Part shown: positions 6,282-64,000 of the stretch, piece by piece
How the letters are laid out: each line of letters opens with the position of its first letter
Position numbering within the stretch: position 1 is the first letter of the stretch
Program-made: the position numbers and the translations under genes
Notes under the pieces: model-generated
Told to the model about the DNA's origin: nothing
What the model saw: only the letters and a program-made list of their open reading frames with translations
Database searches by the model: none
NCBI GenBank assembly: GCA_963788205.1
Contig: CAWBGG010000007.1
Coordinates: 378,732-442,731 of the forward strand
Length of the DNA stretch: 64,000 nt
Origin: an uncultured delta proteobacterium
GTDB taxonomy: Bacteria; Desulfobacterota; Binatia; Binatales; Binataceae
Reading direction: 5' to 3'

Positions 6282-6636
6282 CCCGCCGGGTCCGGACGCT
6301 CGCTCGGGACTGCATTATTAGGCCAAAAATCATGTCAGAATTGACGTCACAATACGGAAAGAGCAAGCCGATGGTTTCGGAAAACTCCAGTATTTTCGCG
6401 GGAATTGTCCAACATTAGAGATACCAAAATGGCTGTCAAAAATGGCGTCACGAATAGGCTGGCCCGTACGCTCTACGCCGGCGTCACCAACGACCCATTC
6501 GTCGCCCGCCGGCTCCTCAGGGCAGGCTCTTGAGCGCCGCGTTTTCGAGCGCAAGCAAGGTAGGCCCGGTTCCTTCACGACGCGATACCACTGTTCTCGC
6601 TCATCGCCGCCCTCTGTCACCCTCGCGCGTCTGCTT

Positions 6637-6746
6637 TGTCTGGCGCGCGAAGGGTCCCGAATCCCTGCCCGGGATTCCTCGCGCGACAGGCAACGCAGAC
6701 GCGCGGGAATGACAAGCCCCGGGATCCTTCGCGCGGCATCGCCCCC
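6637..6746. repeat. BIME-like mosaic of palindromic units (family B)
   Basis: Modules gtctggcgcgcgaagggtcccgaatcc, ccgggattcctcgcgcg and caacgcagacgcgcgggaatgacaa. The same modules recur in inverted order at 59741-59855. Confidence 0.65.
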
Positions 6747-6958
6747 CGGCGCACACCACGCGCGCGCGTGACAATCGTGAAGGAGACGTTTACAACCGGA
6801 GTCGAACTGCCCGCTACCCGGCGGAGGGAATCATGACTTCACAGCCGGCGGCGCGCAGTACCTAATCGACGTGCGATGGCTTCGGGGCATCGTTACGGGG
6901 AGACCGACGCCGGTCCAAATCCCATAGTTGCACGGTTTTATCGGATTGCCGCAGCGTC

Positions 6959-9271: not shown

Positions 9272-10095
9272 CTTCACATCCGGACGACGCGCAGTACCTG
9301 GTTGACGCGCGATGGATACGGGAGCGTCGCGGCGACCCGTCGGTCGTGTTGATCGATACGCGAGCGGCGGCGGAATACTGGGGCGGGCATCTGGCCCGCG
9401 CGCGCCACTTCGATCCCTTTCCGTTCCACTACTACGACACCAGCGATAAGGGGCTTAAAGAATTCCGCGCCCAGCTCCAATGGATTTTCTCGGCGCTCGG
9501 AATCACCGGTCGGGAAACGGTGGTTTTTTACGAGCAGGATTCCGGGATGCGCGCCGCGCGGGGCGCCTGGGCGCTCGAGTATCTCGGCCATCCGGCGGTG
9601 CGGATTTTAGACGGTGGTCTCAAGGCCGCCGCAGCCGAAGAGCTGGTAACCAGCGCCGAGCCGTTCGCACCGAGCGCATTTTCGATCGCGCCGCGGCCGG
9701 AGACCATCGCGTCATACGATTACATCCTGAAACGTATCGGCCGCGGGGACGTATCAATCTTTGACGTTCGTAGTGACGCCGAGTACTACGCGGAAAACGT
9801 ACGGGCCAAATTCGGTGGCGCGATTCCCGGAGCATTTCACCTCGAATGGACCAACGCACTGGACTCCAACGGCGCCTTCAAGCCGCCCGCCGAATTGCGC
9901 GCCGCGTTCGAGCGGATGGGGCTCCGCCCCGAGAACGAGATAATTCCCTATTGCCAGGGCGGTTATCGCGCGGCGCACGCCTACTTAGCCCTCAAGCTGG
10001 CCGGATATCGCAACGTGCGCAATTACATGGGCTCGTGGGCGGAATGGGGCAATCGCGACGACGTGCCGATCGAGCGGCCGAAAAGGCCGCGCTGA
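9268..10095 (+). CDS. thiosulfate/3-mercaptopyruvate sulfurtransferase (tandem rhodanese domains)
   Basis: Two rhodanese domains. Active-site loop CQGGYRAAH in the second. Start overlaps the upstream stop (ATGA). Confidence 0.8.
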   Translation: MTSHPDDAQYLVDARWIRERRGDPSVVLIDTRAAAEYWGGHLARARHFDPFPFHYYDTSDKGLKEFRAQLQWIFSALGITGRETVVFYEQDSGMRAARGAWALEYLGHPAVRILDGGLKAAAAEELVTSAEPFAPSAFSIAPRPETIASYDYILKRIGRGDVSIFDVRSDAEYYAENVRAKFGGAIPGAFHLEWTNALDSNGAFKPPAELRAAFERMGLRPENEIIPYCQGGYRAAHAYLALKLAGYRNVRNYMGSWAEWGNRDDVPIERPKRPR

Positions 10096-12510: not shown

Positions 12511-12927
12511 TTACGCGCTCCGGCGGGGACGAAACTTCGGCAGCGTAATCTCGTCGTTGAGCTTCTCGAATACCACTTCGACCGGCATCCCGCACCTGAG
12601 CTCGTGCGGCTTGACGCCGATCACATTGGATACCATCCGGGCGCCCTCTTCGAGCTGGACCACGACCACCGCGTAGGGAACCTCGGCCGCGAACCCCGGA
12701 TGATAGACCTGATGCATCACGTTGAAGCTGAAGACCTCGCCCCTGCCGCTGACCGGCGCCCATGAAGCGCCGCCCGAGAGGCAATGCGGACACAGCTCGC
12801 GCGGCGGAAAGCGGAACCTGCCGCAACTGTCGCATTTTTGTACAGTTAGTACGCCCCGCCGCGTAGCCTCGAAGAACGGCGCGAGCGCCGGTGTGACGAC
12901 CGGAACGGGCTTGCTGGTCTCCGGCAT
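12511..12927 (-). CDS. DUF35 zinc-ribbon/OB-fold protein (partner of SCP-x-type thiolase)
   Basis: CDSCGR...CPHC zinc ribbon followed by an OB-fold region. Lies immediately downstream of a thiolase-like gene, as in known thiolase-DUF35 pairs. Confidence 0.75.
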   Translation of the reverse strand: MPETSKPVPVVTPALAPFFEATRRGVLTVQKCDSCGRFRFPPRELCPHCLSGGASWAPVSGRGEVFSFNVMHQVYHPGFAAEVPYAVVVVQLEEGARMVSNVIGVKPHELRCGMPVEVVFEKLNDEITLPKFRPRRSA

Positions 12928-24278: not shown

Positions 24279-25160
24279 CTACTTCTTTCCCGCCGCGCGG
24301 CGGCGTTCACCGCCGGAGCGCGCGGCTCGCGCATGCGCCTTGGCCGCGGACTGCTGCTCGGCCTGCTGCGTTTCGGGCGCGGCCACGCCGCGCTTGTCGA
24401 GCGAAGCCTTCAGCGCGGCCATCAGATCGATTACCTGGCCGCGGCGCGGCTCGGCCGGCGTGCCGACGGCCTGCTGGCCCGCGACCTTCTGCTGCGCTGC
24501 TTCGAGCACCCGTTCGCGATAGCTGTCGCGATATTGGGAAGGGTCGAACTTGTCGTGGGTCAGCTCGTCGATCAGCCGTTTCGCCAAGGCCAGCTCCGCT
24601 TCCTTGGCCGCCTCGTTCGCAGCGCGATCGACTTCCTCGACCGGCTTGACCTCGTCGGCATAGTAGACCGTATGGAGCATCAGGCCCTTGGCATAGGGGC
24701 GGATCAGGATCAGATGTTCCTTGCCGCGCAGCGTGTATTTCCCAAGCGCAACACGCTTGCTCGACATCATCGCGTCGCAGAGCAGGCGGTAGGCTTTGCC
24801 CGCTCCCGGCTCGGCGCCCAGATAGTACGAATCCTCGAAGTAGATCGGATCGACCGCCGACAGCGGTACGAACTCGGTTATTTCGATCGCGTGGTCGTCG
24901 CGCGCTTCGAGGTTCTTGAGTTCCTCATCGGTGAAGGTGACGTAGCGGCCCTTCTCGATCTCGTAGCCCCGGACCAGCTCGCTGCGATCGATGATCGCGT
25001 CGTCCACGGGGCAGTAGATTTTCTGCTGGATACGGCTTAGGTCCTTGGCATGCAGCAGGTTGAAGCTCACCGACTTGGCAGAGGTCGCGCCGAACAACCT
25101 GACCGGGATGGAAACCAGACCGAAGGAAATATTGCCACTGCTGACGGGCCGTGCTGCCAT
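24279..25160 (-). CDS. ku: Ku protein (NHEJ)
   Basis: ISFGLVSIPVRLF N-terminus and Ku core, with a basic C-terminal tail. Confidence 0.85.
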   Translation of the reverse strand: MAARPVSSGNISFGLVSIPVRLFGATSAKSVSFNLLHAKDLSRIQQKIYCPVDDAIIDRSELVRGYEIEKGRYVTFTDEELKNLEARDDHAIEITEFVPLSAVDPIYFEDSYYLGAEPGAGKAYRLLCDAMMSSKRVALGKYTLRGKEHLILIRPYAKGLMLHTVYYADEVKPVEEVDRAANEAAKEAELALAKRLIDELTHDKFDPSQYRDSYRERVLEAAQQKVAGQQAVGTPAEPRRGQVIDLMAALKASLDKRGVAAPETQQAEQQSAAKAHARAARSGGERRRAAGKK

Positions 25161-25284
25161 AAACGGGAGCCTCCGGATGCTGATCGTAGCCTATGAACGA
25201 CCGGCCTGCACAAGAGCCCTGCGCGGTGATTTCGCAGTAGTCTTTACCTACACCCGGTATTTTCCGGCGAAATAAAGGCGAATA

Positions 25285-27900
25285 ATGCCGCTGGAGAAGT
25301 ATCGGCAGAAGCGAATGCCGGAGCGAACGCCCGAGCCCTTCGGCAAGGTGGGCGACACCGCGCGACCGTCCGCGGGCTCGATGTTCGTGATTCAAAAGCA
25401 TGCCGCCCGCCGGCTTCACTATGACTTCCGCCTCGAGATGGAGGGCGTATTGCGCTCGTGGGCGGTGCCAAAAGGACCCTCGCTCCGCAGCGCCGACAAG
25501 CGGCTGGCCGTGATGGTCGAGGACCATCCGATTGAATACGGCAATTTCGAGGGGACGATTCCGCAGGGCAATTACGGGGCGGGCGCCGTGATCGTGTGGG
25601 ACCGCGGCGAGTATCGGCCGATCGACCTGCAAGGTGACGCCGCCGCAGCCGTGCGGGCCGGCAAGCTCGACTTCGAGCTGCACGGCTTCAAGCTGCGCGG
25701 CGCCTACACGCTGGTGCGGACGCGCGGGATGCCGAATCGGCGCCAATCGGACCGCAAGGAACAGTGGTTGCTGATCAAGAAGCGCGACGAGTACGCCTCC
25801 GACGACGATGTCCTGGTCACCCATCCGCGCTCGGTGCTCTCCGGCCTAACTATAGAAAAGCTTCGCGACGCAGACGCGGCTGGCGAACGAATCGCGGGCG
25901 GGCTCGCGCAACTCAAGGCGCGGCGGATCGAGGGCGCGTTGGCGGCCAAGGCGTTTCCCCTGATGCTCGCGAAGCTCGCCGACAATCCGTTTGACGGCGA
26001 GGGCTGGCTGTTCGAGCTCAAGTACGACGGGGTGCGGGCGCTGGCGATTCGCGACGGCGAGCACGCGCGCATCTTCGCCCGCAGCGGGATCGAGATCACC
26101 ACGCAATATCCCGAAGTCGCACTCGCGCTCGACAAGCTGCCGTTCAGCCGCCTGGTGCTCGACGGCGAAATCGTCGCCTTCGCGGACGACGGCCGGCCGA
26201 GCTTTCAGCTCCTTCAGCGCCGAATCGGCGCACACGAGCGAAACGATATCGAGCGGCTGAGCCTTTCGATTCCGGCCTGTTATCAGGTTTTCGACCTGCT
26301 CGCTTTCGCGGAGTTCGATCTGCGTCCGCTCCCACTCGAGCAGCGCAAAGCGTTCTTGGCGCAGGTCGTGAAAGGCGATGGCCCGCTGCGCTATTGCGAT
26401 CACTACAGCGCGCGTGGACGGGATTTCTTTCAGGCCGTAGCGCAGGCGGGACTGGAGGGGATGGTCGCCAAGCGCCGCGACTCGATCTACCGGGGCACGC
26501 GCGGCGATGACTGGCGCAAGATAAAGTGCCCGCGACTCGGCCGTTTTGTGATCGGGGGATGGACCGATCCGGCTGGCGCACGGTCGCATTTCGGGGCGCT
26601 GCTGCTCGGCGCGTTCGAGCCCGACGGCAGTCTGCGCTTCCTCTCGCGCGTCGGCACCGGCTTCGACCAGCGCAAACTGCGCGAGATTCATGAACTGCTG
26701 GAGCGCCGCAAGCGCGATCGCTCGCCGTTTCGCCGCCCGGCGCAGGCCGAACCACGCGTGCCGGCCGGCGCGCATTTCTGCGAAGCCGAGCTGGTATGCG
26801 AGGTGCAGTTCGGCGAATGGACCGACGAGGGCGGCCTGCGCCACCCGAGCTTCCGCAGCCTGGTCGAGGGCGCGAACCCGCGCGAGTGTGTCTACGCGGG
26901 TCCGGTGCGCGGCGATTCCAGGCCGCCCGTCCACGACGATCCGCCAGCGCCAGCGAGTGTCGATTCGGGAGGCCAGAGCGTGAAGAAGCCCCAGCGCGCA
27001 TTTACGATTACCAACGCCGGCAAGGTCTTCTGGCCGGCGGAGGGTTACACCAAGGGCGACCTGATCGTGTACTACCAGGCGATCGCGCCCTGGATGCTCC
27101 CCTATCTGAAAGACCGGCCGGTGGTGCTGACCCGCTATCCCGACGGGATCGAGGGCAAAAGTTTCTTTCAGAAAGACGCGCCGTCGTTCGCCCCCGCGTG
27201 GATCCGAACCGAATCGATATACTCGCCCGATACCGCTCGTGACATCGCCTACTTCGTGCTGGAGAGTGCCGAGGCGATCGGCTACATGGCCAACCTGGGC
27301 GCGATTCCGATTCATATCTGGTCCTCGCGCGTGCCCCATCTGGAGCGCCCCGACTGGCTGCTGTTCGATATCGATCCCAAGGGTTCGACGACCCGGCGTG
27401 CGGTGATTGTCGCCCAGGAAGTTGGCGCGGTGCTGCGCTCCGTAGGACTCCGGCCCTATCTGAAAACCTCGGGCCAGCGCGGGCTTCACGTCGTGGTCGG
27501 ACTCGAGCCCAGGTACACCTACGAGCAGGCACGGATGTTCTCCGAGATGGTGGCCGGGCTGGTCGTCAGCCGAATCCCAAGCGACGCGACGCTGGTGCGC
27601 GATACTCGCGCCCGGGGCGGCCGAGTCTATATCGACTATCTTCAGCTTGGCCAGGGCAAGACTATCGCGGCTCCGTTCGCGGCCCGTCCGGCGCCGGGCG
27701 CGCCGGTATCGGCGCCGCTCAAATGGGCCGAATTGAGCGAGGATCTCGACCCCGTGGCGTTCAATATCAAGACGATGCCCAAGCGGATGGCGCGCCTCAA
27801 ACGCGACCCGTTTATCGGCGCGCTCGAAGACCTGCAGGCCATCGAGCCGGCCCTGCCGTGCCTGGAGCGCGAAATTCGCGGTACCGCGCCGAGCAATTGA
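25285..27900 (+). CDS. ligD: ATP-dependent DNA ligase LigD (phosphoesterase-ligase-polymerase)
   Basis: N-terminal PE domain (VIQKHAARRLHYDFRLE). Ligase adenylation motif ELKYDGVRAL. C-terminal LigD polymerase/primase domain. Divergent from ku. Confidence 0.85.
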   Translation: MPLEKYRQKRMPERTPEPFGKVGDTARPSAGSMFVIQKHAARRLHYDFRLEMEGVLRSWAVPKGPSLRSADKRLAVMVEDHPIEYGNFEGTIPQGNYGAGAVIVWDRGEYRPIDLQGDAAAAVRAGKLDFELHGFKLRGAYTLVRTRGMPNRRQSDRKEQWLLIKKRDEYASDDDVLVTHPRSVLSGLTIEKLRDADAAGERIAGGLAQLKARRIEGALAAKAFPLMLAKLADNPFDGEGWLFELKYDGVRALAIRDGEHARIFARSGIEITTQYPEVALALDKLPFSRLVLDGEIVAFADDGRPSFQLLQRRIGAHERNDIERLSLSIPACYQVFDLLAFAEFDLRPLPLEQRKAFLAQVVKGDGPLRYCDHYSARGRDFFQAVAQAGLEGMVAKRRDSIYRGTRGDDWRKIKCPRLGRFVIGGWTDPAGARSHFGALLLGAFEPDGSLRFLSRVGTGFDQRKLREIHELLERRKRDRSPFRRPAQAEPRVPAGAHFCEAELVCEVQFGEWTDEGGLRHPSFRSLVEGANPRECVYAGPVRGDSRPPVHDDPPAPASVDSGGQSVKKPQRAFTITNAGKVFWPAEGYTKGDLIVYYQAIAPWMLPYLKDRPVVLTRYPDGIEGKSFFQKDAPSFAPAWIRTESIYSPDTARDIAYFVLESAEAIGYMANLGAIPIHIWSSRVPHLERPDWLLFDIDPKGSTTRRAVIVAQEVGAVLRSVGLRPYLKTSGQRGLHVVVGLEPRYTYEQARMFSEMVAGLVVSRIPSDATLVRDTRARGGRVYIDYLQLGQGKTIAAPFAARPAPGAPVSAPLKWAELSEDLDPVAFNIKTMPKRMARLKRDPFIGALEDLQAIEPALPCLEREIRGTAPSN

Positions 27901-39603: not shown

Positions 39604-39850
39604 CTAGTACGCTATTAGTTCAAAATGGAAATTCCGGCTTAATGGCGCAATTGCCGTCCAGCGATGCGACACTGACGCAAGGGGGTGGATTTTGCGCTAT
39701 GGCTGCTGTACTTCCCCAGCAACGCCATTCCAAAGGCACCCGCGAGTGCGAAAAGAAGATAACTCCGTCTCAACGCTGCCTCCCCATATTGTATCCGGGA
39801 TTTCCGTTTTGACACCTCGGATTAAGATGATAATTAGTACAGGTTCCCCT

Positions 39851-40801
39851 ATGAAAGTTACCATGGACCGAAAATGTTGGGGTTTCACGCCTCCCGGCGT
39901 CAAAGCATGCTGCAGGCAGTGGTTTTGCCTATTAGTTGTCGCAGGGTTTCTAACTGGCTGTGCGTCAACCGGCACGTCAGCGTATCGCAACCCTAACTTT
40001 GACCAGAGCAAATCTTACCGGGTAGCAGTTTTCCCATTCCGCGATGCGCCTCAAGCTCCCGGAAGTGGCGATGCGCTGTCAACCATATTTGAAGGTACGC
40101 TTTTGGCAAGTGGTGGAAGGTTCGAACTGGTTGACCGTGGAGAAATAGAGCGGATTTTGCGCGAGCACCATGCGGGTGTCAATGGGATGGGGGCCGGTGT
40201 CGGCGGGGATCGTCCGGATTATGTACAAGAATTTGAGGATCCGGTTGGAGTCGGTAAACTACTCCGGGTTGACCTTGTTGTTGTGGGTACGGTAACAAAA
40301 TGGCAGGACTTGCCAGGCAGACCCTCGGTCGCAGCTTTAGTCAAAGCGGTTAGCGTAGAAAAAGGGGTTGTTGTTTGGTCTCTGGATCAGTTTACGGATG
40401 ATGCGCCTCATAACCCCGTGGATTTTGTGGCTTCCAAGCTTTGCCGCCAAATGATCGCCACGTTGGTGGGAAAGAATCCGATCGCCTTGTGGCATACGAA
40501 ATCCGAAGGCGCGGAGCTGGAGCTTGGTTCAACAAACACGCTGGTGTATCGTAACCCCAACTTTGACCAAAGCAAATCGTACCGGGTAGCAGTTTTCCCA
40601 TTTCACGACGCGCCTCAAGCCCCCGGAAGTGGAGATAGGCTGTCAAGCATATTTGAAAGTACACTTTTGGCCAGCAGTGGAAACTTCGAAGTCGTTGAGC
40701 GTGAAGAAACAGAGCGGAGTTTGCGCGAGCGCCATCCGGATGTCAATGGGATGGGGGGCCGGTGCCGGAGGGGATCATCCGGATTATCGACAAGAAGTTG
40801 A
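39851..40801 (+). CDS. CsgG/LpoB-like lipoprotein, copy 1, fused in frame to a signal-less partial copy 2 that then frameshifts
   Basis: Lipobox FLTGCAS. Core YRNPNFDQSKSYRVAVFPF(R/H)DAPQAPGSG...IFE.TLLAS.G.FE.V.R.E.ER.LRE. After copy 1 the frame runs through ...IALWHTKSEGAELELGSTNTLVYRNPNFDQ... into a second core with no stop, then goes out of frame at a run of 6 g (5 g in copies 1 and 3). Confidence 0.6.
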   Translation: MKVTMDRKCWGFTPPGVKACCRQWFCLLVVAGFLTGCASTGTSAYRNPNFDQSKSYRVAVFPFRDAPQAPGSGDALSTIFEGTLLASGGRFELVDRGEIERILREHHAGVNGMGAGVGGDRPDYVQEFEDPVGVGKLLRVDLVVVGTVTKWQDLPGRPSVAALVKAVSVEKGVVVWSLDQFTDDAPHNPVDFVASKLCRQMIATLVGKNPIALWHTKSEGAELELGSTNTLVYRNPNFDQSKSYRVAVFPFHDAPQAPGSGDRLSSIFESTLLASSGNFEVVEREETERSLRERHPDVNGMGGRCRRGSSGLSTRS

Positions 40802-41048
40802 GGATCCAGTTGCTGTCGGTAAACTTCTCCGGGTTGACCTTGTTATCGTGGGCACGGTAACAAACTGGACTCAACGTCAGGCATTCGGATCCTCGGTCGG
40901 AGCTTCTGTCAAAGCGGTTAGTGTAGAAAAAGGGGTCGTTGTGTGGTCTTTGGTTAAGTCTACGGAACACCATTACGCGATCAACGTCGTGGCTCGCAAG
41001 CTTTGCAGCCAAATGATCGCGGCATTGGTGGGTAAGAATCCGAATTAG
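40629..41048 (+). pseudogene. out-of-frame C-terminal remainder of lipoprotein copy 2
   Basis: This frame encodes GAGGDHPDYRQEVEDPVAVGKLLRVDLVIVGTVTNW...ARKLCSQMIAALVGKNPN, homologous to the C-terminal halves of copies 1 and 3. Confidence 0.6.
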
Positions 41049-41060
41049 AACTGTTCCCCT

Positions 41061-41705
41061 ATGGAGGCTACCATGCACCGAAAGTGTTGGGGCTTCGGGC
41101 CTGCCAGCGTCAGAGCATTCTGCAAGCAGTGTCTTTGCCTATTGGTAATCACAGGGTTTCTAACTGGCTGTGCGTCAACCGGCACGTTGGTGTATCGCAA
41201 CCCTAACTTTGACCAAAGCAAATCTTACCGGGTAGCAGTTTTCCCATTCCACGATGCGCCTCAATCCCCCGGAAGTGGAAATGCGCTATCAACCATATTT
41301 GAAAGTACACTTTTGGCGAGCGGTGGAAAGTTCGAAGTGGTTGAGCGTGGAGAAATAGAACGGATTTTGCGTGAGCGCCATCCGGATGTCAATGGGATGG
41401 GGGCCAGTGTCGGCAGGGATTCTGGACAAGAATTCGAGGATCCGGTTGCGGTCGGTAAGCTTCTCCGGGTTGACCTTGTTATTGTGGGCACGGTAACAAA
41501 CTGGACTCAAGGTGTGCAAGCAGGCTGGGCTACTTTTTCCACTACCGCGGTCGGAGCTTCTGTCAAAGCGGTTAGTGTGGAAAAAGGGGTTATTGTTTGG
41601 TCTTTGGATCAGTCTGCACAGCCTGCTTGGGTCCTTACCGGGCCGGTGGATGCTGTGGCTCGCAAGCTTTGCCGCCAAATGGTCGCGACATTTGTGGGAG
41701 AGTAA
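41061..41705 (+). CDS. CsgG/LpoB-like lipoprotein, copy 3 (intact)
   Basis: 214 aa. Same leader (ttcccctatg...ccatg), lipobox and core as copy 1. Upstream sequence is also duplicated. Confidence 0.7.
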   Translation: MEATMHRKCWGFGPASVRAFCKQCLCLLVITGFLTGCASTGTLVYRNPNFDQSKSYRVAVFPFHDAPQSPGSGNALSTIFESTLLASGGKFEVVERGEIERILRERHPDVNGMGASVGRDSGQEFEDPVAVGKLLRVDLVIVGTVTNWTQGVQAGWATFSTTAVGASVKAVSVEKGVIVWSLDQSAQPAWVLTGPVDAVARKLCRQMVATFVGE

Positions 41706-41889
41706 TTGTCCAATGTTGTGAATCGGCCGGTGGACCGAGGCGAACTCCGTCGACGAACTTCACGCCCGCACGGACCAGAGACAAGAGGGTGGCGCCGTCG
41801 AGGCGCCGCCAGCGCTGCTGGGCCATGTCGAGCAGCTTGAACGCCATCAGCAGTGCCTTGGTTCTTGAATCGGCGCGCCAGGCGGCTCG

Positions 41890-41957
41890 GTGAATTTTTA
41901 CGTGAGCGACGACGACAGCACGCCGACGTGGGGCAGCGCCGATTACCGGCACCAGTA
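41890..41957 (+). pseudogene. relic 3-prime fragment of a kinase paralog
   Basis: tttttacgtgagcgacgacgacagcacgccgacgtggggcagcgccgattaccggcaccagtag encodes FYVSDDDSTPTWGSADYRHQ*. It is nearly identical to the last 20 codons of the next gene (FYVSDDGSTLTWGSNSYRRQ*), and has the same stop-to-start junction. Confidence 0.65.
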
Positions 41958-41973
41958 GCGGGAGAGGAACGTC

Positions 41974-44163
41974 GTGCTTTCAGCAGGCTTCGTACTGGCC
42001 GGCCGCTACCGCGTGATTCGCTTGCTCGGCGGCGGCGGAATGAAGCGCGTCTATCTCGCCGAAGACGCGGGGCAAGCCGCACTGCGGCGCGTGGTAGTCG
42101 AGCCCGCGAACGATCCTGGCGAGCCGCAAGCGCGAGAACAGGCATCCGCAGGGCTCCAACTGAAAGCACAAGCGCTGGAGCCCCTTCGCAACGGGCACCT
42201 CGCCCAGTTGCTCGAGTTCCTTACTGAAGACGGCCGCCTCTACCTAATCCGCGAGTACGTAGAAGGCGAATCGCTAGAAGAGCGAATCAGGAGGATGCCG
42301 AAGACCGGTTTGGCGCCTGAGTTCGTAATCGGCCTCGCGCTCCAGATTCTGGACGGCCTGGTTGTTCTGCATGGACTCGATCCGCCGTTCATCTATCGCA
42401 ACCTCAAGCCCTCCAACGTGATCATCGGACCGGAGGGAGTTGCGAAGCTGGTCGATTTCGGCCTTGCGCTCGACCTCGCGCCGCCATCTCTGGCCACAAA
42501 AATCGGCGCGCGGCCATACTCCGCGCCCGAACAGTACGAGCGTCGCGACGGGCCACAGAGCGATCTCTACGCGCTCGGCGCGATCATGCACCACGCGCTG
42601 TCGGGCCGCGATCCCGTCAAATCGGCGCCGTTTCGGTTTCAGCCGCTCGAGCGGCTCCGTCCGGACCTGAATCCCGATCTCTGTAAGCTTGTTGATCGCT
42701 CGCTGGCCTTCAACGTAAACGAGCGCGTCCCGTCCGCCCAGTTCTTCAAGGATTCTCTCCTCGCCATCAAGGCAGGCCAGCCGCTGCCGGCTTTCGCCCC
42801 GGCGCAGGCGCCTGCGTCGCCGGTCGCGGCGCAGCCTGGCGCAGCGGCGCCCGCGCGACCGCGCTCGCGTCGCGCGCCCTGCCCGCACTGCCAACGACGA
42901 ATCCCGCGCGACGCGCGCACCTGCCCTTACTGCGCGCGCAACGTCGCTACGGGCGAGATAGGCGTAGGCGCGTCCTCATCAGGGCGAAAGATCCCCGCGG
43001 CTGCGATAGGCATTGCCGCCGTCGCGGCTGCCGTGGTCGCAGGCGTGTTCATCCTCAGGCCTGATCATGCGTCCAGTCCAGCGGTGCGGCAAATTGCCGC
43101 TCCCGCTTCGGTCCCTTCGCATTCGGCGGCTGAGGCCGAAGCGGAAGCGCATCGGCTCGCGCTCGCGCGGCAGTTCGACGCCGACATGGCGGCGTTTCGC
43201 GGCGCCGAGCCGTCCAGCCACTCACGAGAGAGACTCCGCCGGACGATCATAGCCGAGGGTGTTAACATGAATCCGCCGCCGGGTCTGCCCCAGGACGCAC
43301 TGCAACATCTCGATCGTGGCGATGCCGATCTCAAGGCGCGCAACTATGCCGAGGCGGCCGGCGAGTTTCGCGAGGCGCTGGACGAGGCGCCATGGCTGGC
43401 GCAGGCCTATCGGGGTCTCGCCCGGGCACGCGAATCAGCCGGCGATCTGGACGGCGAGATCGAAGCCTCCAACGACTATTTGCTCGCCTCACCGCAGGCG
43501 TCCGATGCGCTGGAGGTGAAGGCGCATGCCGCAGCGTTGGGCCAGCGAATCTTCGCAAGTCAGAGCGACGCCGCCTTGCGCAACGAGATCCAGGCCCTAC
43601 AAGTCAAGCAGCAGGAGGAGGAGGCGGAGCAGGCGCGAATTCGGGCGCAGGAGCAGGCCGAGGAAGAGGCCCGTCAAGAGCAGCAGCGGCAGAACCAGCG
43701 CCAGCAGGCCGAGCAGCAGCGCCAGCAGGTCGAGCGGGAGCAACGGTGCCGGGAAAACTTCGTCGGAAGGTGGGGAGAGTACGACGTCGAGTGCTGCGGC
43801 GAAAGACGTTCGGGCGCGACCTCTTTTTTACCGCCCGGCTCCGGCGGCAGACCGATTCAGGGGCTGGGAGGAGTATATCAGATCGACCTCGCCGGCAAGC
43901 AGCTACAAGTTTATCGGGTGCTTGGGGTAAAGTGCAGCCGTGCCTGCGAATCGACCGGTCTGTATCAAACCAGCGAACTCGTGTTCGACGGTACCCTCAC
44001 CAATCAACGCACGAATTGGAGCGGCAACTGCAGCTTCACAGCTACCGGCGAGATTCATCACTTCGACCCTTTTGAGGCAGTGCCCATCGACTCGGTGGAC
44101 TTTTACGTCAGCGACGACGGTAGCACGCTGACGTGGGGCAGCAACAGTTACCGGCGCCAGTAG
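41974..44163 (+). CDS. transmembrane Ser/Thr kinase-like protein, predicted pseudokinase, with zinc ribbon, TPR-like and coiled-coil periplasmic region
   Basis: GGGGMKRVY is present. The beta-3 Lys is lost (RRVVVEP). The catalytic loop reads IYRNLKPSN (Asp to Asn). DFG and APE are present. CPHC...CPYC ribbon, then a TM segment, then a TPR-like segment, a Q/E/R-rich coiled coil and a Cys-containing C-terminal domain. GTG start. Confidence 0.75.
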   Translation: MLSAGFVLAGRYRVIRLLGGGGMKRVYLAEDAGQAALRRVVVEPANDPGEPQAREQASAGLQLKAQALEPLRNGHLAQLLEFLTEDGRLYLIREYVEGESLEERIRRMPKTGLAPEFVIGLALQILDGLVVLHGLDPPFIYRNLKPSNVIIGPEGVAKLVDFGLALDLAPPSLATKIGARPYSAPEQYERRDGPQSDLYALGAIMHHALSGRDPVKSAPFRFQPLERLRPDLNPDLCKLVDRSLAFNVNERVPSAQFFKDSLLAIKAGQPLPAFAPAQAPASPVAAQPGAAAPARPRSRRAPCPHCQRRIPRDARTCPYCARNVATGEIGVGASSSGRKIPAAAIGIAAVAAAVVAGVFILRPDHASSPAVRQIAAPASVPSHSAAEAEAEAHRLALARQFDADMAAFRGAEPSSHSRERLRRTIIAEGVNMNPPPGLPQDALQHLDRGDADLKARNYAEAAGEFREALDEAPWLAQAYRGLARARESAGDLDGEIEASNDYLLASPQASDALEVKAHAAALGQRIFASQSDAALRNEIQALQVKQQEEEAEQARIRAQEQAEEEARQEQQRQNQRQQAEQQRQQVEREQRCRENFVGRWGEYDVECCGERRSGATSFLPPGSGGRPIQGLGGVYQIDLAGKQLQVYRVLGVKCSRACESTGLYQTSELVFDGTLTNQRTNWSGNCSFTATGEIHHFDPFEAVPIDSVDFYVSDDGSTLTWGSNSYRRQ

Positions 44164-58188: not shown

Positions 58189-59487
58189 TCAGGTTAACGC
58201 AGCCGCGGCCTTGCGCAGCCGTCCGGCGACTGCGGGAGTTACCAGCGCCCGCATCGAGACCATGCCGTCATTGTATTCTTCGCTGAGCACCTGCCCCTCG
58301 CGCCGCGCCATCGCGATCAGGTCGCCGCGCGCGGCCGAAAGCTCGACCTGCACTTCTTCGCGCAGCCCGGCGAAGAATCGCGCGAGCGCCTCCAGCAGCC
58401 GATCGAGCCCGTCGCGTCGCAGCGCCGAAATCGTCACGCTCTCGAATCCCTCTGGCGCGCGCGGCGGATTCTCTGCCAGGTCGGCCTTGTTCAAGACCAT
58501 GATTCGCGGCGTCGCACCGGCGCCGATTTCCGCGAGCACTCGATCGACCACCGCGATCTGCTCCGCCGCCAGCGCCGAGCTTGAATCCACCACATGCAAA
58601 ATGAGGTTCGCGGTGCGGACTTCCTCGAGCGTGGCCTTGAAGGCCTCCACCAGCATGTGGGGCAGGCGATGGATAAAGCCGACCGTGTCCGCGAGCATCA
58701 CGTTTGCGCCGCCCGGCAGCCGCAGCCGCCGGATGGTCGGATCGAGCGTCGAGAAGGGGCGATCCGCGACCACCACGCCGGCATCGGTGAGCGCGTTCAT
58801 CAGGGTCGATTTGCCGGAATTGGTATAGCCGGCCAGCGCGACCGTCGGATACGGAAATTCGAGCCGTCGGCGGCGCTGGATCGCACGGGTCCGTTCCACA
58901 TCGCGCAGGCGGGTGCGCAGGCGCGTAAGACGCTCGCGCACGCGGCGGCGGTCCACTTCGAGCTGGGTTTCGCCGGGACCGCGCGTGCCGATTCGGCCGC
59001 CGCCGGCCGAGCCGCCCGTCATGCGCGACAGATGCATCCATTGGCGCGTGAGCCGCGGTTGCAGGTAGGCGAGCTGCGCAACCTCGACCTGCAGCTTGCC
59101 CTCCAGAGTTCGCGCGCGCTGGGCGAAAATGTCGAGAATGAGCTGGCTGCGATCGATGACGCGGAACTCGAGTTCCTTCTCGAGATTGCGGGCCTGTGCC
59201 GGGCTGAGACTATCGTCGAAGATCGCCAGCGAGGCGCCGTTCTGGCGCGCAGCCTCGCGCACTTCTGCGACTTTGCCCCGCCCGATGAAGGTCCGGGGAT
59301 CGATCTCCTTGAGACGCTGGCGAACCGTGGCGGCAACCTGCGCGCCAGCCCCCTCAGTCAGCGCCGCAAGCTCGGCCAGCGATTCCTCGCTGCTGATTTC
59401 GTGGCCGTTGCCAAGGTCTACTCCGACCAGCACGGCGCGCTCGATGTTCTGGGTCTGGCGAGATGAATCCGTGGTTGATACTCCCAT
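58189..59487 (-). CDS. hflX: GTPase HflX
   Basis: HflX N-terminal domain plus a GTPase domain (GYTNSGKST, DTVGF, NKAD). Confidence 0.9.
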   Translation of the reverse strand: MGVSTTDSSRQTQNIERAVLVGVDLGNGHEISSEESLAELAALTEGAGAQVAATVRQRLKEIDPRTFIGRGKVAEVREAARQNGASLAIFDDSLSPAQARNLEKELEFRVIDRSQLILDIFAQRARTLEGKLQVEVAQLAYLQPRLTRQWMHLSRMTGGSAGGGRIGTRGPGETQLEVDRRRVRERLTRLRTRLRDVERTRAIQRRRRLEFPYPTVALAGYTNSGKSTLMNALTDAGVVVADRPFSTLDPTIRRLRLPGGANVMLADTVGFIHRLPHMLVEAFKATLEEVRTANLILHVVDSSSALAAEQIAVVDRVLAEIGAGATPRIMVLNKADLAENPPRAPEGFESVTISALRRDGLDRLLEALARFFAGLREEVQVELSAARGDLIAMARREGQVLSEEYNDGMVSMRALVTPAVAGRLRKAAAALT

Positions 59488-59583
59488 TTGCAGCCTATCA
59501 AAGAAACGCGCCGGCGGCTAAGCCGGCAAGACAGAAGAGCGCCATCACCCAATTTTCGGTAGTGCGCGGTTTTGACAGCACGG

Positions 59584-59660
59584 GCCGGCACGGAGGCCGG
59601 CCCCTACCCAATCAAGGAGCCTTGATTCAGGGTAGTGGCCGGCGTCCCTGCCGGCCATCC
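59584..59660. repeat. REP/MITE-like palindromic element, family A, copy 2 (inverted relative to copy 1)
   Basis: Reverse complement matches 2149-2225 except for the central 12 nt. Flanked by 30-bp imperfect direct repeats (cacccaattttcggtagtgcgcggttttgaca / cacccaactttctggtagtgtctcggtttggca). Confidence 0.7.
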
Positions 59661-59740
59661 GACCCCAAAATCGTACATCACCCAACTTTCTGGTAGTGTC
59701 TCGGTTTGGCATCGAAGGCAGTGTCGGCAGGTGGAAAAAA

Positions 59741-59855
59741 AGGATTCGGGATTCTTCGCGCGCCAGACAACGCAGACGCGCGAGAATGACAACGTTGACA
59801 AGCTTTTTCTGTCATTCCCGCGCGTGGCTGGCGCGCGAGGAATCCCGGATCTTCT
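59741..59855. repeat. BIME-like mosaic of palindromic units (family B)
   Basis: Contains the hairpin cgcgcgagaatgacaacg...tgtcattcccgcgcg and shares modules with 6637-6746. Confidence 0.65.
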
Positions 59856-59968
59856 TCCGCTCGCCCCACTCGCGAGCATTCTCAAACTGTGACACTAGCG
59901 ATTTTCTCCGCACCATGACAAATCGCTGGCATTTCTGTACCCTAGAGGTACGGTTGAGGACTGGTAAT

Positions 59969-60313
59969 ATGCAGGAAATGCGCACTCCGAGGACCGGCGT
60001 CTTGGAGGCGCTCCTACGCCTGGAGCGCTCACCGGAAGCTCCCTCACGCGAAGCGCTGGAACGGGCCAGGCAGATCGCTCGCTTCATAGAACAACACAAA
60101 TCACCAGTGCCGTTCGTATTTCCAACCGAAATCGGCGGCATTCAATTCGAATGGCGTGGCAAACCGCGCGAAGTTGACCTTGAAGTGCTCCCTCAGGGAA
60201 CAGCGCTCGCGTTTTCAACGCTGGTTGACGGAAAGTGTTCCCGCGAAGGCGAGATCAAAGAAGATGTCGAGCGCGAAGTGCGTAATCTATTGAGCTGGAT
60301 GGTGGGACTCTAA
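59969..60313 (+). CDS. hypothetical protein
   Basis: 114 aa from the internal ATG. The upstream part of the ORF-track entry is read-through of the repeat elements. No recognisable domain. Lower GC than surrounding DNA. Confidence 0.4.
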   Translation: MQEMRTPRTGVLEALLRLERSPEAPSREALERARQIARFIEQHKSPVPFVFPTEIGGIQFEWRGKPREVDLEVLPQGTALAFSTLVDGKCSREGEIKEDVEREVRNLLSWMVGL

Positions 60314-60346
60314 CCGCCTTCCACGCCCGCATCCCGTCTCCCGCCT

Positions 60347-60757
60347 CTACGCCTTTTTCGGCAGTCGTATTAGCCTCGCTGTCCTCGCCATAGTTGCTGC
60401 GGACCCGCCTGATATGCGTTTGCCGGGTGAATTCGCCCGATAGGCGCAAAGATGGCCCGATGGAGGCTCATCGGTAACGACGATACAGCCGGCGTCGCGG
60501 ATCTCCTGAACGGTGATTGTGGCAAGCCCGTCGTTTGGATAGCCCCTCAACACCTCGTCTTCAGTGGCCCGGTCGCGTCGATAAACCGAAAGTTCTTCAG
60601 TTCGGAACGCCCCACTCGACACGACAGGAACGCCATTGGTATCAAAGTCCACGTATCGAGCCTGGATGCGTCGGTAGACCTCGACCGCACCGGGTATAGA
60701 CGGGCCGGACAATCGGCGATCCGAGAGGGAGGCAACATCTGAGAATCTTTGCTTCAA
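60347..60757 (-). CDS. hypothetical protein
   Basis: 136 aa, lower GC. No recognisable domain. Confidence 0.4.
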   Translation of the reverse strand: MKQRFSDVASLSDRRLSGPSIPGAVEVYRRIQARYVDFDTNGVPVVSSGAFRTEELSVYRRDRATEDEVLRGYPNDGLATITVQEIRDAGCIVVTDEPPSGHLCAYRANSPGKRISGGSAATMARTARLIRLPKKA

Positions 60758-61107
60758 CAGTGCAAGGAGGCAGTCTCAGGCAGTCTCAGCCGGTCGCAAC
60801 GTGGCGAAGCAGCACGCTCGTGCTCTTGCAACCACGCCTCGACTTCACGCTCAAGTCCAAGATTCTCGCCTTTGCCGCTTGGTGGTCGGGAAGGCCAGCG
60901 CAAGGGCCGCCGCAGAGAGCCCGCGCAGCCGTGGCCGCCGTTGCTCCGCGCTCTTACGGGCGCACGTCGGGGACGTGGCGGTGCTGGTAGAGGCCGTCTG
61001 GAGCCTCAAGGCCGGCTTCCCGAAAGAGGCCGCAGCATGAGCGGCCAAGACCGCATCCGCGAGATAGCCGACTCCGGGCGGGCCGGCGCGGTTGGGAAAT
61101 GGCGCCA

Positions 61108-61932
61108 TCAATATCTAGCGAGCCAATATCCTAAGCACACACCGACAACCAGCGCGATCAGAGGCCACGTCAGAAACGCGGCCGTCCAGCGCCATCCGAT
61201 GAAAACCACTTCGCCGGCTACAACACGAACGCCGGGCGGCAGCTTCGGCCTCTCCCCGTGGCTCTTCAAACTTTCGTAGGCAGGTCTCACGGCAACGTGC
61301 CTTTCCCAGCTCTCCGCCTCGCCTTCCATCCACATATTGGAATGCGCGGTCCCGTCTCTGATCTGACTGAATTTGGTTGCCTGCCAGAGAATTTGAACTG
61401 CACGACCGATCTCAAGGACCGCCTCTTCTGGGTCAGGGTCGTGCAATGCCTTTTGGGCTCCAGCTAGGTTCCTCAGGAAGTCGCAAGCATCTTCCGCAGC
61501 GATAGCGGTTTGGCTGGCAAGCCCAAGGGCTGTGTTGATGCGGAACCCGACCGGCAACCTGTTTTGCTTCAAGGAGGCGTTATATCTGCGCTCTTGCTCG
61601 CGCTCCGAAATGTCGGGGTCCAGCCAATCAATTACGCTGCCCGCTAACCATTCGGCCGCTTCTGCTAACGGCTCAGCCAAGTCGGTTTCGCCGTCTCGTT
61701 GTTCTTCCTTTCCCTTGCGAATCCACGAGATACCGCGTGCCAGAACCGTTGCCGCGTGCCCGACATAGCGCTTTTGCCTGTCGGTCCCAAGGCTCAGCAG
61801 GTCACTATTATACGACAAGTCTTTGCACGCCCCCTTACTGTATCTTAGGACCCTATCCAACAGTTCATCCCTTCGCTGTAGCCATCTGAGTAACTCGTCT
61901 AAGTCAGCCGCCAACTGGTCATAGTAATCCAT
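61108..61932 (-). CDS. hypothetical protein with C-terminal transmembrane anchor
   Basis: 274 aa, mostly helical and acidic, with a C-terminal TM (FLTWPLIALVVGVCLGYWLARY). Last gene of a minus-strand four-gene run. Confidence 0.5.
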   Translation of the reverse strand: MDYYDQLAADLDELLRWLQRRDELLDRVLRYSKGACKDLSYNSDLLSLGTDRQKRYVGHAATVLARGISWIRKGKEEQRDGETDLAEPLAEAAEWLAGSVIDWLDPDISEREQERRYNASLKQNRLPVGFRINTALGLASQTAIAAEDACDFLRNLAGAQKALHDPDPEEAVLEIGRAVQILWQATKFSQIRDGTAHSNMWMEGEAESWERHVAVRPAYESLKSHGERPKLPPGVRVVAGEVVFIGWRWTAAFLTWPLIALVVGVCLGYWLARY

Positions 61933-61950
61933 AGGAAGGTGGCTGAACCC

Positions 61951-62244
61951 CTATTTTTCCTTGAGGCGCGGATCGTCGGTCGCAATGCACGTTGCCATTT
62001 CGTGGGCCAAGTTGTCGTAGGCATCTAATTTGGCGAATTTGCCCTGCTCCGCAGGCCAGCGAATTGGTTTCCGAGCTTCTGCCCTCGCGGCTTCGCATTG
62101 TGCCGCAGTATCGTAGCTCGACTCGACCTGCCACTGACTTAGGGGCGCTTCTGCGTCCACTCGGGGGTCTTCCGTGTTCTGCGCGGGCGGGATTACCAGG
62201 TACCAGCCTGTGAGCGCGAGCGCGGCGGCGTGGACGAGTCGCAT
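61951..62244 (-). CDS. small secreted protein, paralog A
   Basis: 97 aa, signal-like AAALALTGWYLVIPP. Conserved LSQW...YDTAAQCEAARA...IATDDPRLKEK. Its start lies 1 nt after the stop of paralog B. Confidence 0.55.
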   Translation of the reverse strand: MRLVHAAALALTGWYLVIPPAQNTEDPRVDAEAPLSQWQVESSYDTAAQCEAARAEARKPIRWPAEQGKFAKLDAYDNLAHEMATCIATDDPRLKEK

Positions 62245-62245
62245 C

Positions 62246-62548
62246 CTACTTTTCCTTCAGGCGCGGATCGTCGCTGGCGATGCACTGTTCGCTCGCAGTC
62301 GCGTTATACTGCTGCTGTCGCACGGTGGCGATATACGGACCCTGATTCGGCAGGTCTAATATCTTCTGGGCGTCGGTAATTGCCGACGCTCTAGCTGCCT
62401 CGCAGGCTGCCGCTGTATCGTAGGCGCCTTCATGCGCCCATTGCGAGAGCGGTTCATATAGTAAGACATCCCCGCCGAGCTTGCCCATCGGCGGCATCAG
62501 AAGGTACCAGCCTGCAAGCGCGAGCGCGGCGGCGTGAGCCAACTTCAC
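62246..62548 (-). CDS. small secreted protein, paralog B
   Basis: GTG start with GGAG RBS. AAALALAGWYLLMPP, LSQW...YDTAAACEAARA...IASDDPRLKEK. Both genes begin with the same ctacttttccttcaggcgcggatcgtcg segment at the DNA level. Confidence 0.55.
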   Translation of the reverse strand: MKLAHAAALALAGWYLLMPPMGKLGGDVLLYEPLSQWAHEGAYDTAAACEAARASAITDAQKILDLPNQGPYIATVRQQQYNATASEQCIASDDPRLKEK

Positions 62549-62576
62549 GTGATTCTTTACTCCGCCGGAGCCAACG

Positions 62577-62930
62577 TCACGATTGATTCGGACGCCGCTG
62601 TGCCGCCAATGCTTCAAGGCCTTCGTTAATCTCATTCATGAGTTCTGTGACACGTTCCATCCTCGCGAGCACACGCCTCAAGACATGTACGTTTTCGGTG
62701 ATTACTTCGTCGGGCATGAGATCGATGCCGGCAGTAATCAAGTCAGAAGACACTTTTGTTGAGGCAATTGCTCTTGCTTTTATTTGGCCCAAGGTACTGC
62801 ATTCTTCTGATGTAAGATTTTGAGCGTCAAGCTCCGCAGCCAGCCGATTGTATTTCTCGATGGCAGAGGAAAGGCGCCGAGTCTGCGCTAGGAGAGCGTC
62901 TCGTAGATCTTCTAGGTCGTTGTTCGGCAC
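62577..62930 (-). CDS. hypothetical coiled-coil protein
   Basis: 117 aa helical protein. First gene of the minus-strand run. Confidence 0.4.
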   Translation of the reverse strand: MPNNDLEDLRDALLAQTRRLSSAIEKYNRLAAELDAQNLTSEECSTLGQIKARAIASTKVSSDLITAGIDLMPDEVITENVHVLRRVLARMERVTELMNEINEGLEALAAQRRPNQS

Positions 62931-63150
62931 GTGCGCTTCGCGGCCCAGACTTGCCGACTTCTTGGCGAATCGCTAACATCGCTTTTTGGCGATCCTGGCT
63001 TGTTCGCGGCAAGCCTGAGTTTGCATCGAGCCAGGGTCTTGCGAGATGAATCCGTGATTGTGGACCTCACCGCAGGGACGGTTACAACTCGACTCTATCA
63101 AAGCCGGGTACTAAGACAACTGCGCGAACCGAGGAGCGCGGTGCGCTCGT

Positions 63151-64000
63151 TCAGCGCAGCTCGACCGCTTCTGCGTCCAGGACGCGGCTGGCTTCGGCGA
63201 CGAACGCCTCGGTCGGGCAGACTCGGAGCTGGTCGGCGAGCAGGAACACCGCCTCGCGATTCTCGCCGAGACCCAGATGCAGATAGACCAGCCCGCGCCC
63301 CGAATGGCGGGCGAGCAGGTCCTTGAACCGCACTACCGCGGCGTCATCGAGCCGCGCCTTGGGCGCGCGGATATGCACTTCGCGAATCGAATCCGCCAGC
63401 GCTATCGGCAGCGGCCGCAGATCTTCGAGGATGATCTGGGCGCGATCCTCGTCGACATCGAGCTTGCCGCGCGCCACCACCGGCTCGTCGCTCATGATCG
63501 CCGCCTCGCACCGCGAATAAGTCTCAGGCCACGCGATTACCTCGACCACGCCCTCGCGATCCTCCAGATGAAACGTCGCGTAGCGCTTGCCGCTCTTGGC
63601 GCTGTTCTTGAGCTTGACGGCCTGGACCACGCCGGTCAGCACGACCTGGCTTCCGTCCGGCGCGGCGGAAAGATCGGCGGTGGTGAGCGGGCTCATGTGC
63701 CGCACCTCGCGATCGAACGGATCGAGCGGATGGGCGGTGATATAGAAGCCGAGCGCCTCCTTCTCGGCCTTGAGCTTTTCCTTGGGAGCCCATTCGGCGA
63801 CCGCGGCGCGCGGCGCCAGCGACGGCACCCTCGCCTCGCCGAACAGGCCGATCTGGTTGCGGGCCGCGGCCTCGTTGCGTTGGGCAAACTTGATGACCTC
63901 TTCGACCTGGGCCATCAACTCGGCGCGCGGCGCGCCCGTAGAATCGAACGCGCCGCATTTGATCAGCGCTTCGAGCACGCGCCGGTTGACGAGCTGGGTG
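63151..64000 (-). CDS. DNA polymerase III alpha subunit family (DnaE or DnaE2), C-terminal portion only
   Basis: ...HQLVNRRVLEALIKCGAFD..., LGFYITAHPL and the OB-fold tail. The reading frame continues past the window end. Confidence 0.75.
   Translation of the reverse strand, partial: TQLVNRRVLEALIKCGAFDSTGAPRAELMAQVEEVIKFAQRNEAAARNQIGLFGEARVPSLAPRAAVAEWAPKEKLKAEKEALGFYITAHPLDPFDREVRHMSPLTTADLSAAPDGSQVVLTGVVQAVKLKNSAKSGKRYATFHLEDREGVVEVIAWPETYSRCEAAIMSDEPVVARGKLDVDEDRAQIILEDLRPLPIALADSIREVHIRAPKARLDDAAVVRFKDLLARHSGRGLVYLHLGLGENREAVFLLADQLRVCPTEAFVAEASRVLDAEAVELR

Follow-up and report, generated by a model that had tools for sequence, protein, structure and literature searches.

A probable genomic islet with a predicted toxin/immunity pair at the dnaE-hflX junction of an uncultured soil Binataceae bacterium

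Between hflX and dnaE, an uncultured soil bacterium of the Binataceae (Binatota) carries about 3.6 kb of DNA with six small genes, P1 to P6. What is this block, and how did it come to lie between two core genes? The window analysed here is a stretch of 64,000 nucleotides (contig CAWBGG010000007.1 of assembly GCA_963788205.1, positions 378,732 to 442,731 of the forward strand), and coordinates refer to it unless another contig is named. An earlier note, made from the letters of this DNA alone, had described a low-G+C block of six small genes at this place and taken it for a small acquired island; all six open reading frames (ORFs) are present in the ORF list as it described them, and the short gaps of relatives and the foreign composition of the genes agree with acquisition. 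Our reading, to which we give a probability of about 0.6, is that the block is a strain-specific genomic islet of ~3.6 kb, not mobile by itself, that was inserted in the leader and first codons of hflX and brought a toxin/immunity module together with the cargo genes P6 to P3. It builds on an empty site in relatives, a leader duplication that brackets the block, a foreign codon composition and other inserts in the same gap, all of them directly observed.

Relatives were taken from an HflX scan of 185,579 species genomes; the closest are metagenome-assembled genomes of soil Binataceae (Binatota), with HflX 71-90% identical. In the window, hflX (58189-59487, minus strand), into whose 5' end and leader the block went, and the 3' end of dnaE (63151-64000, minus strand; the C-terminal part, with the Pfam architecture read from the full-length orthologue on contig L072) are 3663 nt apart. 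The same interval, whose comparison the earlier note had proposed, measures ~60-380 nt in 11 of 12 Binataceae and ~700 nt in the twelfth, and pgsA lies 3' of hflX in the compared relatives and in the window alike. The block is therefore an insertion relative to the sampled Binataceae, or at least is missing from each close relative sampled. Three independent assemblies contain it at 99-100% identity (Logan contigs L001 and L002, and ENA contig L094, which is 99.2% identical across 59348-63087 and extends into hflX), so it is not an assembly artefact. From 59478 to 63033 it has 58.2% G+C, against 63.5 +/- 1.8% in segments of the same size, 3% of which are equally low, and the G+C content at third codon positions (GC3) of its genes is 0.50-0.69, against 0.79-0.84 for hflX, pgsA, dnaE, ligD and ku. 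The codon composition of the block is foreign.

Where does the block begin and end? A repeat search picked out 59451-59477 and 63034-63060 as a direct repeat (D4; 25/27 nt, spacing 3583 nt), which sits within a duplicated hflX leader of ~70-90 nt: alignment with the empty sites of the relatives identifies both repeat sites as copies of that leader. This bracketing repeat, which the earlier note had missed, sets the natural limits of the block at 59451/59478 to 63033/63102, in place of the 59880-63150 first proposed. Leader copy 1 (63034-63102, minus strand), beside dnaE, points into P6. It has the form seen in relatives, with a -10-like TTTGATAGAGT, a hairpin segment, a GAGGTCC Shine-Dalgarno (SD) sequence and the core CACGGATTCATCTCGCAAGACCC. 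It can be aligned with the leaders of hflX on contigs L003, L005, L017 and L072 as far as ...AAGACCC, after which it diverges into P6-side sequence. Leader copy 2 (59451-59529, minus strand) would be the one in use for hflX and runs into the native gene. It comprises TTTGATAGGCT, the ATG at 59487 and the core CACGGATTCATCTCGCCAGACCC with one mismatch, has neither the hairpin nor a canonical SD, and is 79% identical to the region upstream of hflX on L072, where P1 likewise adjoins hflX.

Both leader copies have ACG at the position of a CTG that is conserved in five of five aligned relatives. The sites 59451-59487 and 63034-63070 of the window were compared for the start codon with six relatives (L003 at 9990-10010, L004, L005, L006, L017, and L072 at 12550-12560), in which the only in-frame candidate for the hflX start 7-8 nt past the GAGGTCC SD is a CTG. 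In the window, the ATG of hflX lies five codons upstream of the ACG site with no obvious SD, so that the hflX mRNA may be leaderless. Two of the independent assemblies stop in or at copy 1 (position 1 of L001 corresponds to 63036, and L094 ends at 63087); the repeat itself could break the assembly there, or a mixed population with and without the islet.

The same gap holds a different insert, of 6.3 kb, on three JGI contigs (L072 to L074; HflX 88% identical). On L072, P1 (83% identical) and P2 adjoin hflX, and the dnaE-proximal part is unrelated to P3-P6. P2 is split there (residues 20-81 and 79-135) by a 3.3-kb IS1595-type element while P1 is intact; a broken toxin gene beside an intact immunity gene would fit a pair in which the toxin is dispensable while immunity is retained. 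On the IS1595-family element (L072 8515-11856, also on L073 and L074) lie a 549-aa N6/N4 methyltransferase/restriction-type gene and two further ORFs, of 138 and 83 aa. Directly 3' of dnaE, L072 has 1.3 kb with no called gene (6272-7637), followed by an unannotated 193-aa gene; within this 1.3 kb a repeated segment is present in two copies ~356 nt apart, with GTTGATAGATT at 6664 and 7020 and similar translated strings. On contig L008, the gap of ~930 nt contains one gene of the family of P4 and P5, in the opposite orientation, and throughout 1.34 Mb of fetched sequence, mostly Binataceae, this family occurs at the dnaE-hflX junction only. The junction is an insertion hot spot in Binataceae.

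How might the block have entered? The donor would have been another Binataceae in which P1 already adjoined hflX, and one crossover in the 5' region of hflX would have brought the DNA in, whether a recombinase acted in trans or homology facilitated the recombination. Along the first route, a circular element with an hflX leader of its own would have integrated in Campbell fashion, with its recombinase supplied in trans or since lost; along the second, L072-like donor DNA would have recombined by homology-facilitated recombination, anchored in the hflX 5' region. The two routes give the same structure and we cannot tell them apart. Following either, hflX would now be expressed from the imported leader of the islet, with a new ATG and five extra codons, and the native promoter of hflX, displaced to ~165 nt upstream of P6, would probably drive P6-P5-P4-P3. 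A promoter and terminator scan gave sites no commoner than in shuffled sequence.

Could the block instead be what remains of a larger site-specific element, such as a prophage, an integrative and conjugative element or an integrative and mobilizable element? Such an element would have entered at the hflX 5' end, restored hflX with its own leader and later lost its integrase by deletion, in the manner of a cis-mobilizable element (CIME). The near-identical 23-nt core of the bracketing repeats, their shared ACG, the re-creation of the hflX start codon by an element-borne leader, and the occurrence of P4/P5-family genes beside a phage-type integrase and on viral contigs all speak for this origin. 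However, a tblastn search with the integrase of contig L085 as query found no integrase-like sequence, not even a fragment, in the block or at any of 29 Binataceae hflX loci; P1 and P2 stand at the same place on L072 without a duplicated core; our literature search turned up neither an hflX-targeting integrase nor a paper on hflX as an attachment site; and homology-facilitated recombination with L072-like donor DNA explains the same structure. We consider a decayed element possible but unlikely. With CIME-type and other genomic islets, the block shares direct repeats, an empty site in relatives, foreign composition, the absence of a mobility gene and a reused core-gene junction. Unlike in CIME-type islets, the target is neither a tRNA gene nor a gene's 3' end but the 5' leader of hflX, a diverged leader copy takes the place of a clean att core, and no cognate integrase-bearing element is known. 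Of the hallmarks of site-specific islands, the empty site, the flanking repeats and the deviant composition are present, but not an integrase or a tRNA/tmRNA target.

What does the islet that we favour carry? On its hflX side lie P1 (59969-60313, plus strand), a predicted immunity/antitoxin protein of 114 aa with the motif PxPFVFPTEIGGIQFEW, and P2 (60347-60757, minus strand; 136 aa), a predicted toxin of ADP-ribosyltransferase (ART) fold. P2 more likely starts at the TTG at 60712, giving 121 aa, since its homologues have 122-128 aa. The two genes are convergent, with 33 nt between their stop codons. No domain had been recognised in any of the six proteins when the block was first described, and Pfam, NCBIfam and PHROG likewise give no significant family for any of them, nor for the family alignments. 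At the level of fold, P2 is predicted to adopt the split-sheet ADP-ribosyltransferase fold and P1 an immunity-like fold. These neighbouring genes seem to match, independently, the two chains of one toxin-immunity complex, which would be hard to explain by chance.

The linkage of the two genes is conserved. Among 5.8e9 clustered proteins, P2 has 6 homologues and P1 has 18, and scanning metagenomes with the P1 profile gave 80 loci more. A P2 homologue adjoins a close P1 homologue in ~19 of the 22 cases with enough flanking sequence. The arrangement is convergent at 14 loci (13 distinct places), as it is in the nearest relatives (L077, L079, L096-L104 except L101, L106 and L108), and a P1-then-P2 operon with overlapping genes at 12 loci in distant relatives (L105, L110-L113, L116, L122, L129, L133, L164, L172 and L173). 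Neighbouring genes change from locus to locus (CoA-transferases at one, coaD/rsmD/nuo at another) while the adjacency is kept; P1/P2 is thus a mobile two-gene unit. Across 19 diverse sequences of the P2 family, R29, D39, F51 and S57 do not vary and I21 and R87 hardly do, and two members match Pfam ADPrib_exo_Tox faintly (E 0.077). P2 is a free-standing protein, as are its homologues, all within 121-138 aa. P1 has no helix-turn-helix (HTH) or ribbon-helix-helix match, and no match in the phage genome collection. A weak tblastn match of P2 inside LigD (25690-25923; 26% identity, E 4e-5 against the 64-kb window only) was judged to be due to chance; LigD (871 aa) and Ku (293 aa) form a divergent non-homologous end-joining pair at 24279-27900.

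Our reading of the pair is that P2 would be a small ART-fold toxin of the cytoplasm, with P1 as the protein that inhibits it. P1 would bind and block P2 as the immunity protein TriTu does the toxin TreTu, and the two would form an addiction or abortive-infection module that helps to keep the islet in place. Of this, the predicted fold and the gene linkage are shown, and the enzyme activity, its target and the neutralisation are inferred. The toxin/immunity or defence cargo that the earlier note had allowed for would fit such a module, judging by the predicted folds and by the PDC-M32 matches described below.

Is the pair a member of a known system? The complex in question, TreTu/TriTu, pairs the C-terminal ADP-ribosyltransferase toxin of Salmonella Rhs1 with its immunity protein (PDB 7zhl, 7zhm); the NAD+-binding residues of TreTu are R6, E12, S25, H31, F41 and W68, and its target is D21 of EF-Tu (PMC9825190). 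P1 and P2 have no detectable sequence similarity to this pair, and the likeness lies at the level of predicted fold. An Arg, a Ser and an aromatic residue are among the invariant residues of the P2 family, but they are spaced unlike those of TreTu (PMC9825190), whose six residues cannot be mapped one-to-one onto P2. Whereas TreTu is the tip of an Rhs protein delivered by a type VI secretion system (T6SS), P2 is free-standing; no Rhs, PAAR or T6SS gene occurs in the block or nearby, and the two genes are convergent here. Because it is free-standing, P1/P2 is not a member of the Rhs/T6SS TreTu system.

PDC-M32 is a two-gene candidate phage-defence system in PADLOC-DB v2. A PADLOC run, which the earlier note had recommended, matched P1 to PDC-M32A (positions 276-348 of 375, E 2e-10) and, weakly, P2 to PDC-M32B (E 0.042; the best family member reached 0.0039, and three of seven members match). 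As in PDC-M32, an immunity-like domain is followed by a toxin-like protein in the co-directional relatives of P1/P2. Unlike PDC-M32A, P1 is without the N-terminal 260 aa, two-thirds of the A protein, and does not match over the full length; unlike the overlapping A-B operon of PDC-M32, the genes in the window are convergent. The P1 domain also led us to genuine PDC-M32 pairs on Rhodococcus plasmids, which match over their full length (E 1e-168 and 2e-41). In these full pairs, which also occur on an IMG/VR contig, an A gene for 377-384 aa is followed by a B gene, which on the plasmids overlaps A and encodes 143-151 aa. The plasmid pairs (L175, Rhodococcus opacus pROB01 481171-482767; L176, R. 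qingshengii pN9T4-2 41278-42835) are annotated as hypothetical and lie on mobilizable plasmids, that of pROB01 near an IS30 transposase and a site-specific integrase. Aligning the P2 profile with a single Rhodococcus PDC-M32B sequence in hhalign gave a weak match (E 0.029) in which only the motif order is the same. In the literature searched, no function has been demonstrated for PDC-M32. As the N-terminal two-thirds of A are absent, P1/P2 is not a full PDC-M32 system.

Unlike the toxins of the ART-fold toxin-antitoxin systems ParT/ParS, RES-Xre, MbcT/MbcA and DarT/DarG, P2 has no Pfam RES or DarT match and is smaller (~121 aa), and unlike their antitoxins, P1 has no HTH, Xre or macro domain. 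The kept linkage of two small genes recalls type II toxin-antitoxin systems, but the window has neither a co-directional, antitoxin-first operon nor a DNA-binding antitoxin; being convergent here, P1/P2 is not a canonical type II operon. By its predicted fold, it would best be classed as a new member of the ART toxin-immunity group.

Does the pair serve primarily as an anti-phage abortive-infection system, a minimal PDC-M32, rather than for plain addiction, so that the islet would be a small defence island? Two adjacent genes match both components of one candidate defence system, PDC-M32-type relatives occur on a viral contig and on the mobilizable Rhodococcus plasmids, the L072 islet holds the methyltransferase/restriction-type gene on its IS1595 element, and a P3 homologue on contig L080 lies near a DUF433 protein and an RNSVAH (HEPN-like) protein. 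However, PDC-M32 itself is only a candidate, for which the literature found merely lists PADLOC matches; the ~260-aa N-terminal part of PDC-M32A, which P1 does not have, would be the obvious place for a sensor; PADLOC has no match for P3-P6; and P1 is unmatched among phage genomes. A primary role in defence is a tentative and rather unlikely proposal.

The other four genes, P6, P5, P4 and P3, lie on the minus strand, and the tight packing that the earlier note had attributed to the block holds for them. P6 (62577-62930; 117 aa, GC3 0.50), the first gene of this operon and one that is also called as a gene on contig L001, encodes a helical, coiled-coil-like protein, a near-orphan with merely sub-threshold matches to coiled-coil families; no relatives of it were detected in viral contigs. 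P5 (62246-62635) is an ORF of 129 aa, which comparison with P4 and the family suggests is more likely to start at the GTG at 62548 (~100 aa). P4 (61951-62244; 97 aa) starts 1 nt past the P5 stop. The two are paralogues, as had been proposed, with 49% identity (BLASTP, E 7e-10). P3 (61108-61932; 274 aa) has a helical N-terminal part and one hydrophobic C-terminal anchor (AAFLTWPLIALVVGVCLGYWLA).

P4 and P5 belong to a very large family. Against 1.84e9 cluster representatives, their profile finds 3448 proteins at E<1e-3 and 1096 at E<1e-10, mostly of 85-115 aa. The N-terminus is almost invariant (M-[KR]-L-R-H-A-A-A-L-A-L-V-G-W-Y-L-M-x-P-P), and members also have in common an APLSxW motif, two conserved cysteines, a variable middle and an invariant C-terminus, C-I-A-[ST]-D-D-P-R-L-K-E-K (in short, GWYLMxPP...CIASDDPRLKEK). 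No Pfam or NCBIfam family covers the members, the P4/P5 and P3 profiles find nothing among PDB sequences, and searches of the plasmid and phage genome collections with P5 gave no match. Four viral contigs of IMG/VR carry a single member each; that of L088 sits immediately upstream of an ORF which, judged from its sequence, resembles a terminase small subunit. Contig L084 (304-2107) has five tandem genes with 1-nt spacing, four of which plainly belong to the family; the second gene keeps the N-terminal segment only and has a different body, which suggests cassette-like exchange behind a conserved leader. Fused or tandem arrays lie beside a phage-type integrase on L085 and L086; on L085 (2582-5424), a 377-aa ORF of several fused or partial units adjoins a 412-aa phage-type integrase and a 75-aa gene. 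The family members look like exported, disulfide-bonded (or membrane-anchored) accessory proteins of mobile elements.

P3, by comparison, is a near-orphan, with 3 homologues among 5.8e9 proteins (54-62% identical) and nothing in Pfam, PDB, plasmids or viral contigs. Each homologue stands alone in another context, one by a DUF433 and an RNSVAH-motif protein and two by an amidohydrolase. At the first of these loci (L080, 1320-4336), genes for DUF433, a 238-aa multi-pass membrane protein and a 182-aa RNSVAH (HEPN-like) protein precede the P3 homologue (286 aa), and the locus may be a defence or toxin-antitoxin neighbourhood. That P3, P4/P5 and P6 make up one conserved system was considered and rejected, as the P3 homologues occur without the others and the P4/P5 arrays without P3 or P6. 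In our explanation of the islet, P4 and P5 would be tandem exported, probably disulfide-bonded proteins of a family that phages and integrative elements carry; P3 would be a membrane protein with a tail anchor, and P6 would be of coiled-coil type. At best a guess, with little to support it, is that P6 to P3 could be moron-like envelope proteins for cell-surface exclusion or immunity.

Several results weigh against our reading of the islet and its cargo. For the route of insertion, Pfam, NCBIfam and PHROG scans of the six proteins found no recombinase or transposase, in keeping with the earlier note's failure to see a mobility gene, and a tRNA scan found no tRNA in or beside the block. On L072 the leader is present only once, and the duplication is thus not general for insertions at the dnaE-hflX site. 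As to the toxin and its inhibitor, the third catalytic residue of the R-S-E triad cannot be placed, E97 not being conserved in distant members; a Foldseek search with P1 failed to recover TriTu, and every E-value exceeded 0.03; profile searches link neither P1 nor P2 by sequence to any solved structure in PDB; P2 matches PDC-M32B marginally, and the match of P1 to PDC-M32A spans no more than ~73 of its 375 positions. Convergent genes are, moreover, unusual for toxin-antitoxin pairs. Finally, P3 and the P4/P5 family do not co-occur elsewhere: the check on the 274-aa protein and the paralogue pair that had been suggested at the outset found the former alone and the latter in arrays of its own.

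A bolder extension can be drawn, which we regard as doubtful. PDC-M32 systems and the minimal P1/P2 pair might form one superfamily of ART toxins with TriTu-like immunity proteins, in which the ~260-aa N-terminal module of a full A protein would release the toxin on phage infection and the Binataceae pair would be the bare core; such a superfamily would have escaped recognition because its conservation is at the fold level only. The GWYLMxPP...CIASDDPRLKEK family (>3400 clusters, no Pfam entry) might, in the same vein, be a new and widespread class of phage- and island-borne envelope exclusion proteins.

The remaining DNA of the block is partly made of host repeats. The two elements on the hflX side that the earlier note had likened to repetitive extragenic palindromic (REP) sequences and bacterial interspersed mosaic elements (BIMEs) are indeed multi-copy. 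Element A (59576-59669), REP-like, is 95% identical to 2139-2231 of the window and 94% to 11989-12097 of L004. Element B (59742-59852; inverted repeat I1), a hairpin with 32-nt arms that resembles REP sequences or miniature inverted-repeat transposable elements, has further copies at 6622-6715 of the window, on L004 (715-815) and on L006 (16027-16138). Both are genuine REP/BIME-like host repeats. The sole Rfam match in the block and the whole window is a sub-threshold one to mir-160 on element B (26 bits against a gathering score of 48 bits), which most likely reflects merely the hairpin shape. Between P3 and P2 lies a G+C-rich spacer of 350 nt (60758-61107; 67-68% G+C) without a supported gene, for which no nucleotide or translated similarity was found beyond the island's own copies. 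A doubtful ORF of 85 aa (60851-61108, minus strand), which overlaps the P3 stop by 1 nt, was called by gene callers on the Logan contigs; its Ala/Pro/Arg-rich product has no homologue, and we set it aside as what looks like a composition artefact. The other low-G+C stretch of the window, 39692-41705 (G+C 0.545 at 40-42 kb, GC skew +0.145), holds two paralogous lipoprotein-like genes (369 and 214 aa), the longer with an internal domain duplication (YRNPNFDQSKSYRVAVFPF...); it is not rRNA, as Rfam finds nothing there in its scan of the whole window.

That the block is ancestral to the lineage and was lost from the relatives is very improbable: although P1 and P2 adjoin hflX in two lineages whose HflX is just 88% identical (the window and L072) and a third, L008, has a P4/P5-family gene in the same gap, in the twelve relatives, the closest among them (HflX 87-90% identical), the gap is short and the leader single and intact, GC3 of the block genes is 0.1-0.3 below that of host genes, the duplicated leader is a mark of insertion rather than a retained ancestral state, and the dnaE-side cargo of the window and of L072 is wholly different.

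What does an insertion of this kind mean? The islet is an ordinary insertion of the accessory genome at a core-gene junction, not a new kind of system, and none of these results overturns current understanding. They would, if the fold reading is true, give PDC-M32 a testable function, with B as an ADP-ribosyltransferase and the C-terminal domain of A as its inhibitor, and they would add a free-standing relative to the TreTu/TriTu structural class, which to our knowledge has so far been known from Rhs effectors only. P4 and P5 draw attention to a very large unnamed family of what look like small secreted proteins on mobile elements. For the Binataceae, a widespread uncultured soil lineage, the dnaE-hflX junction emerges as a recurrent insertion hot spot, and in this strain the insertion would have swapped the leader and start codon of a conserved GTPase gene, hflX.

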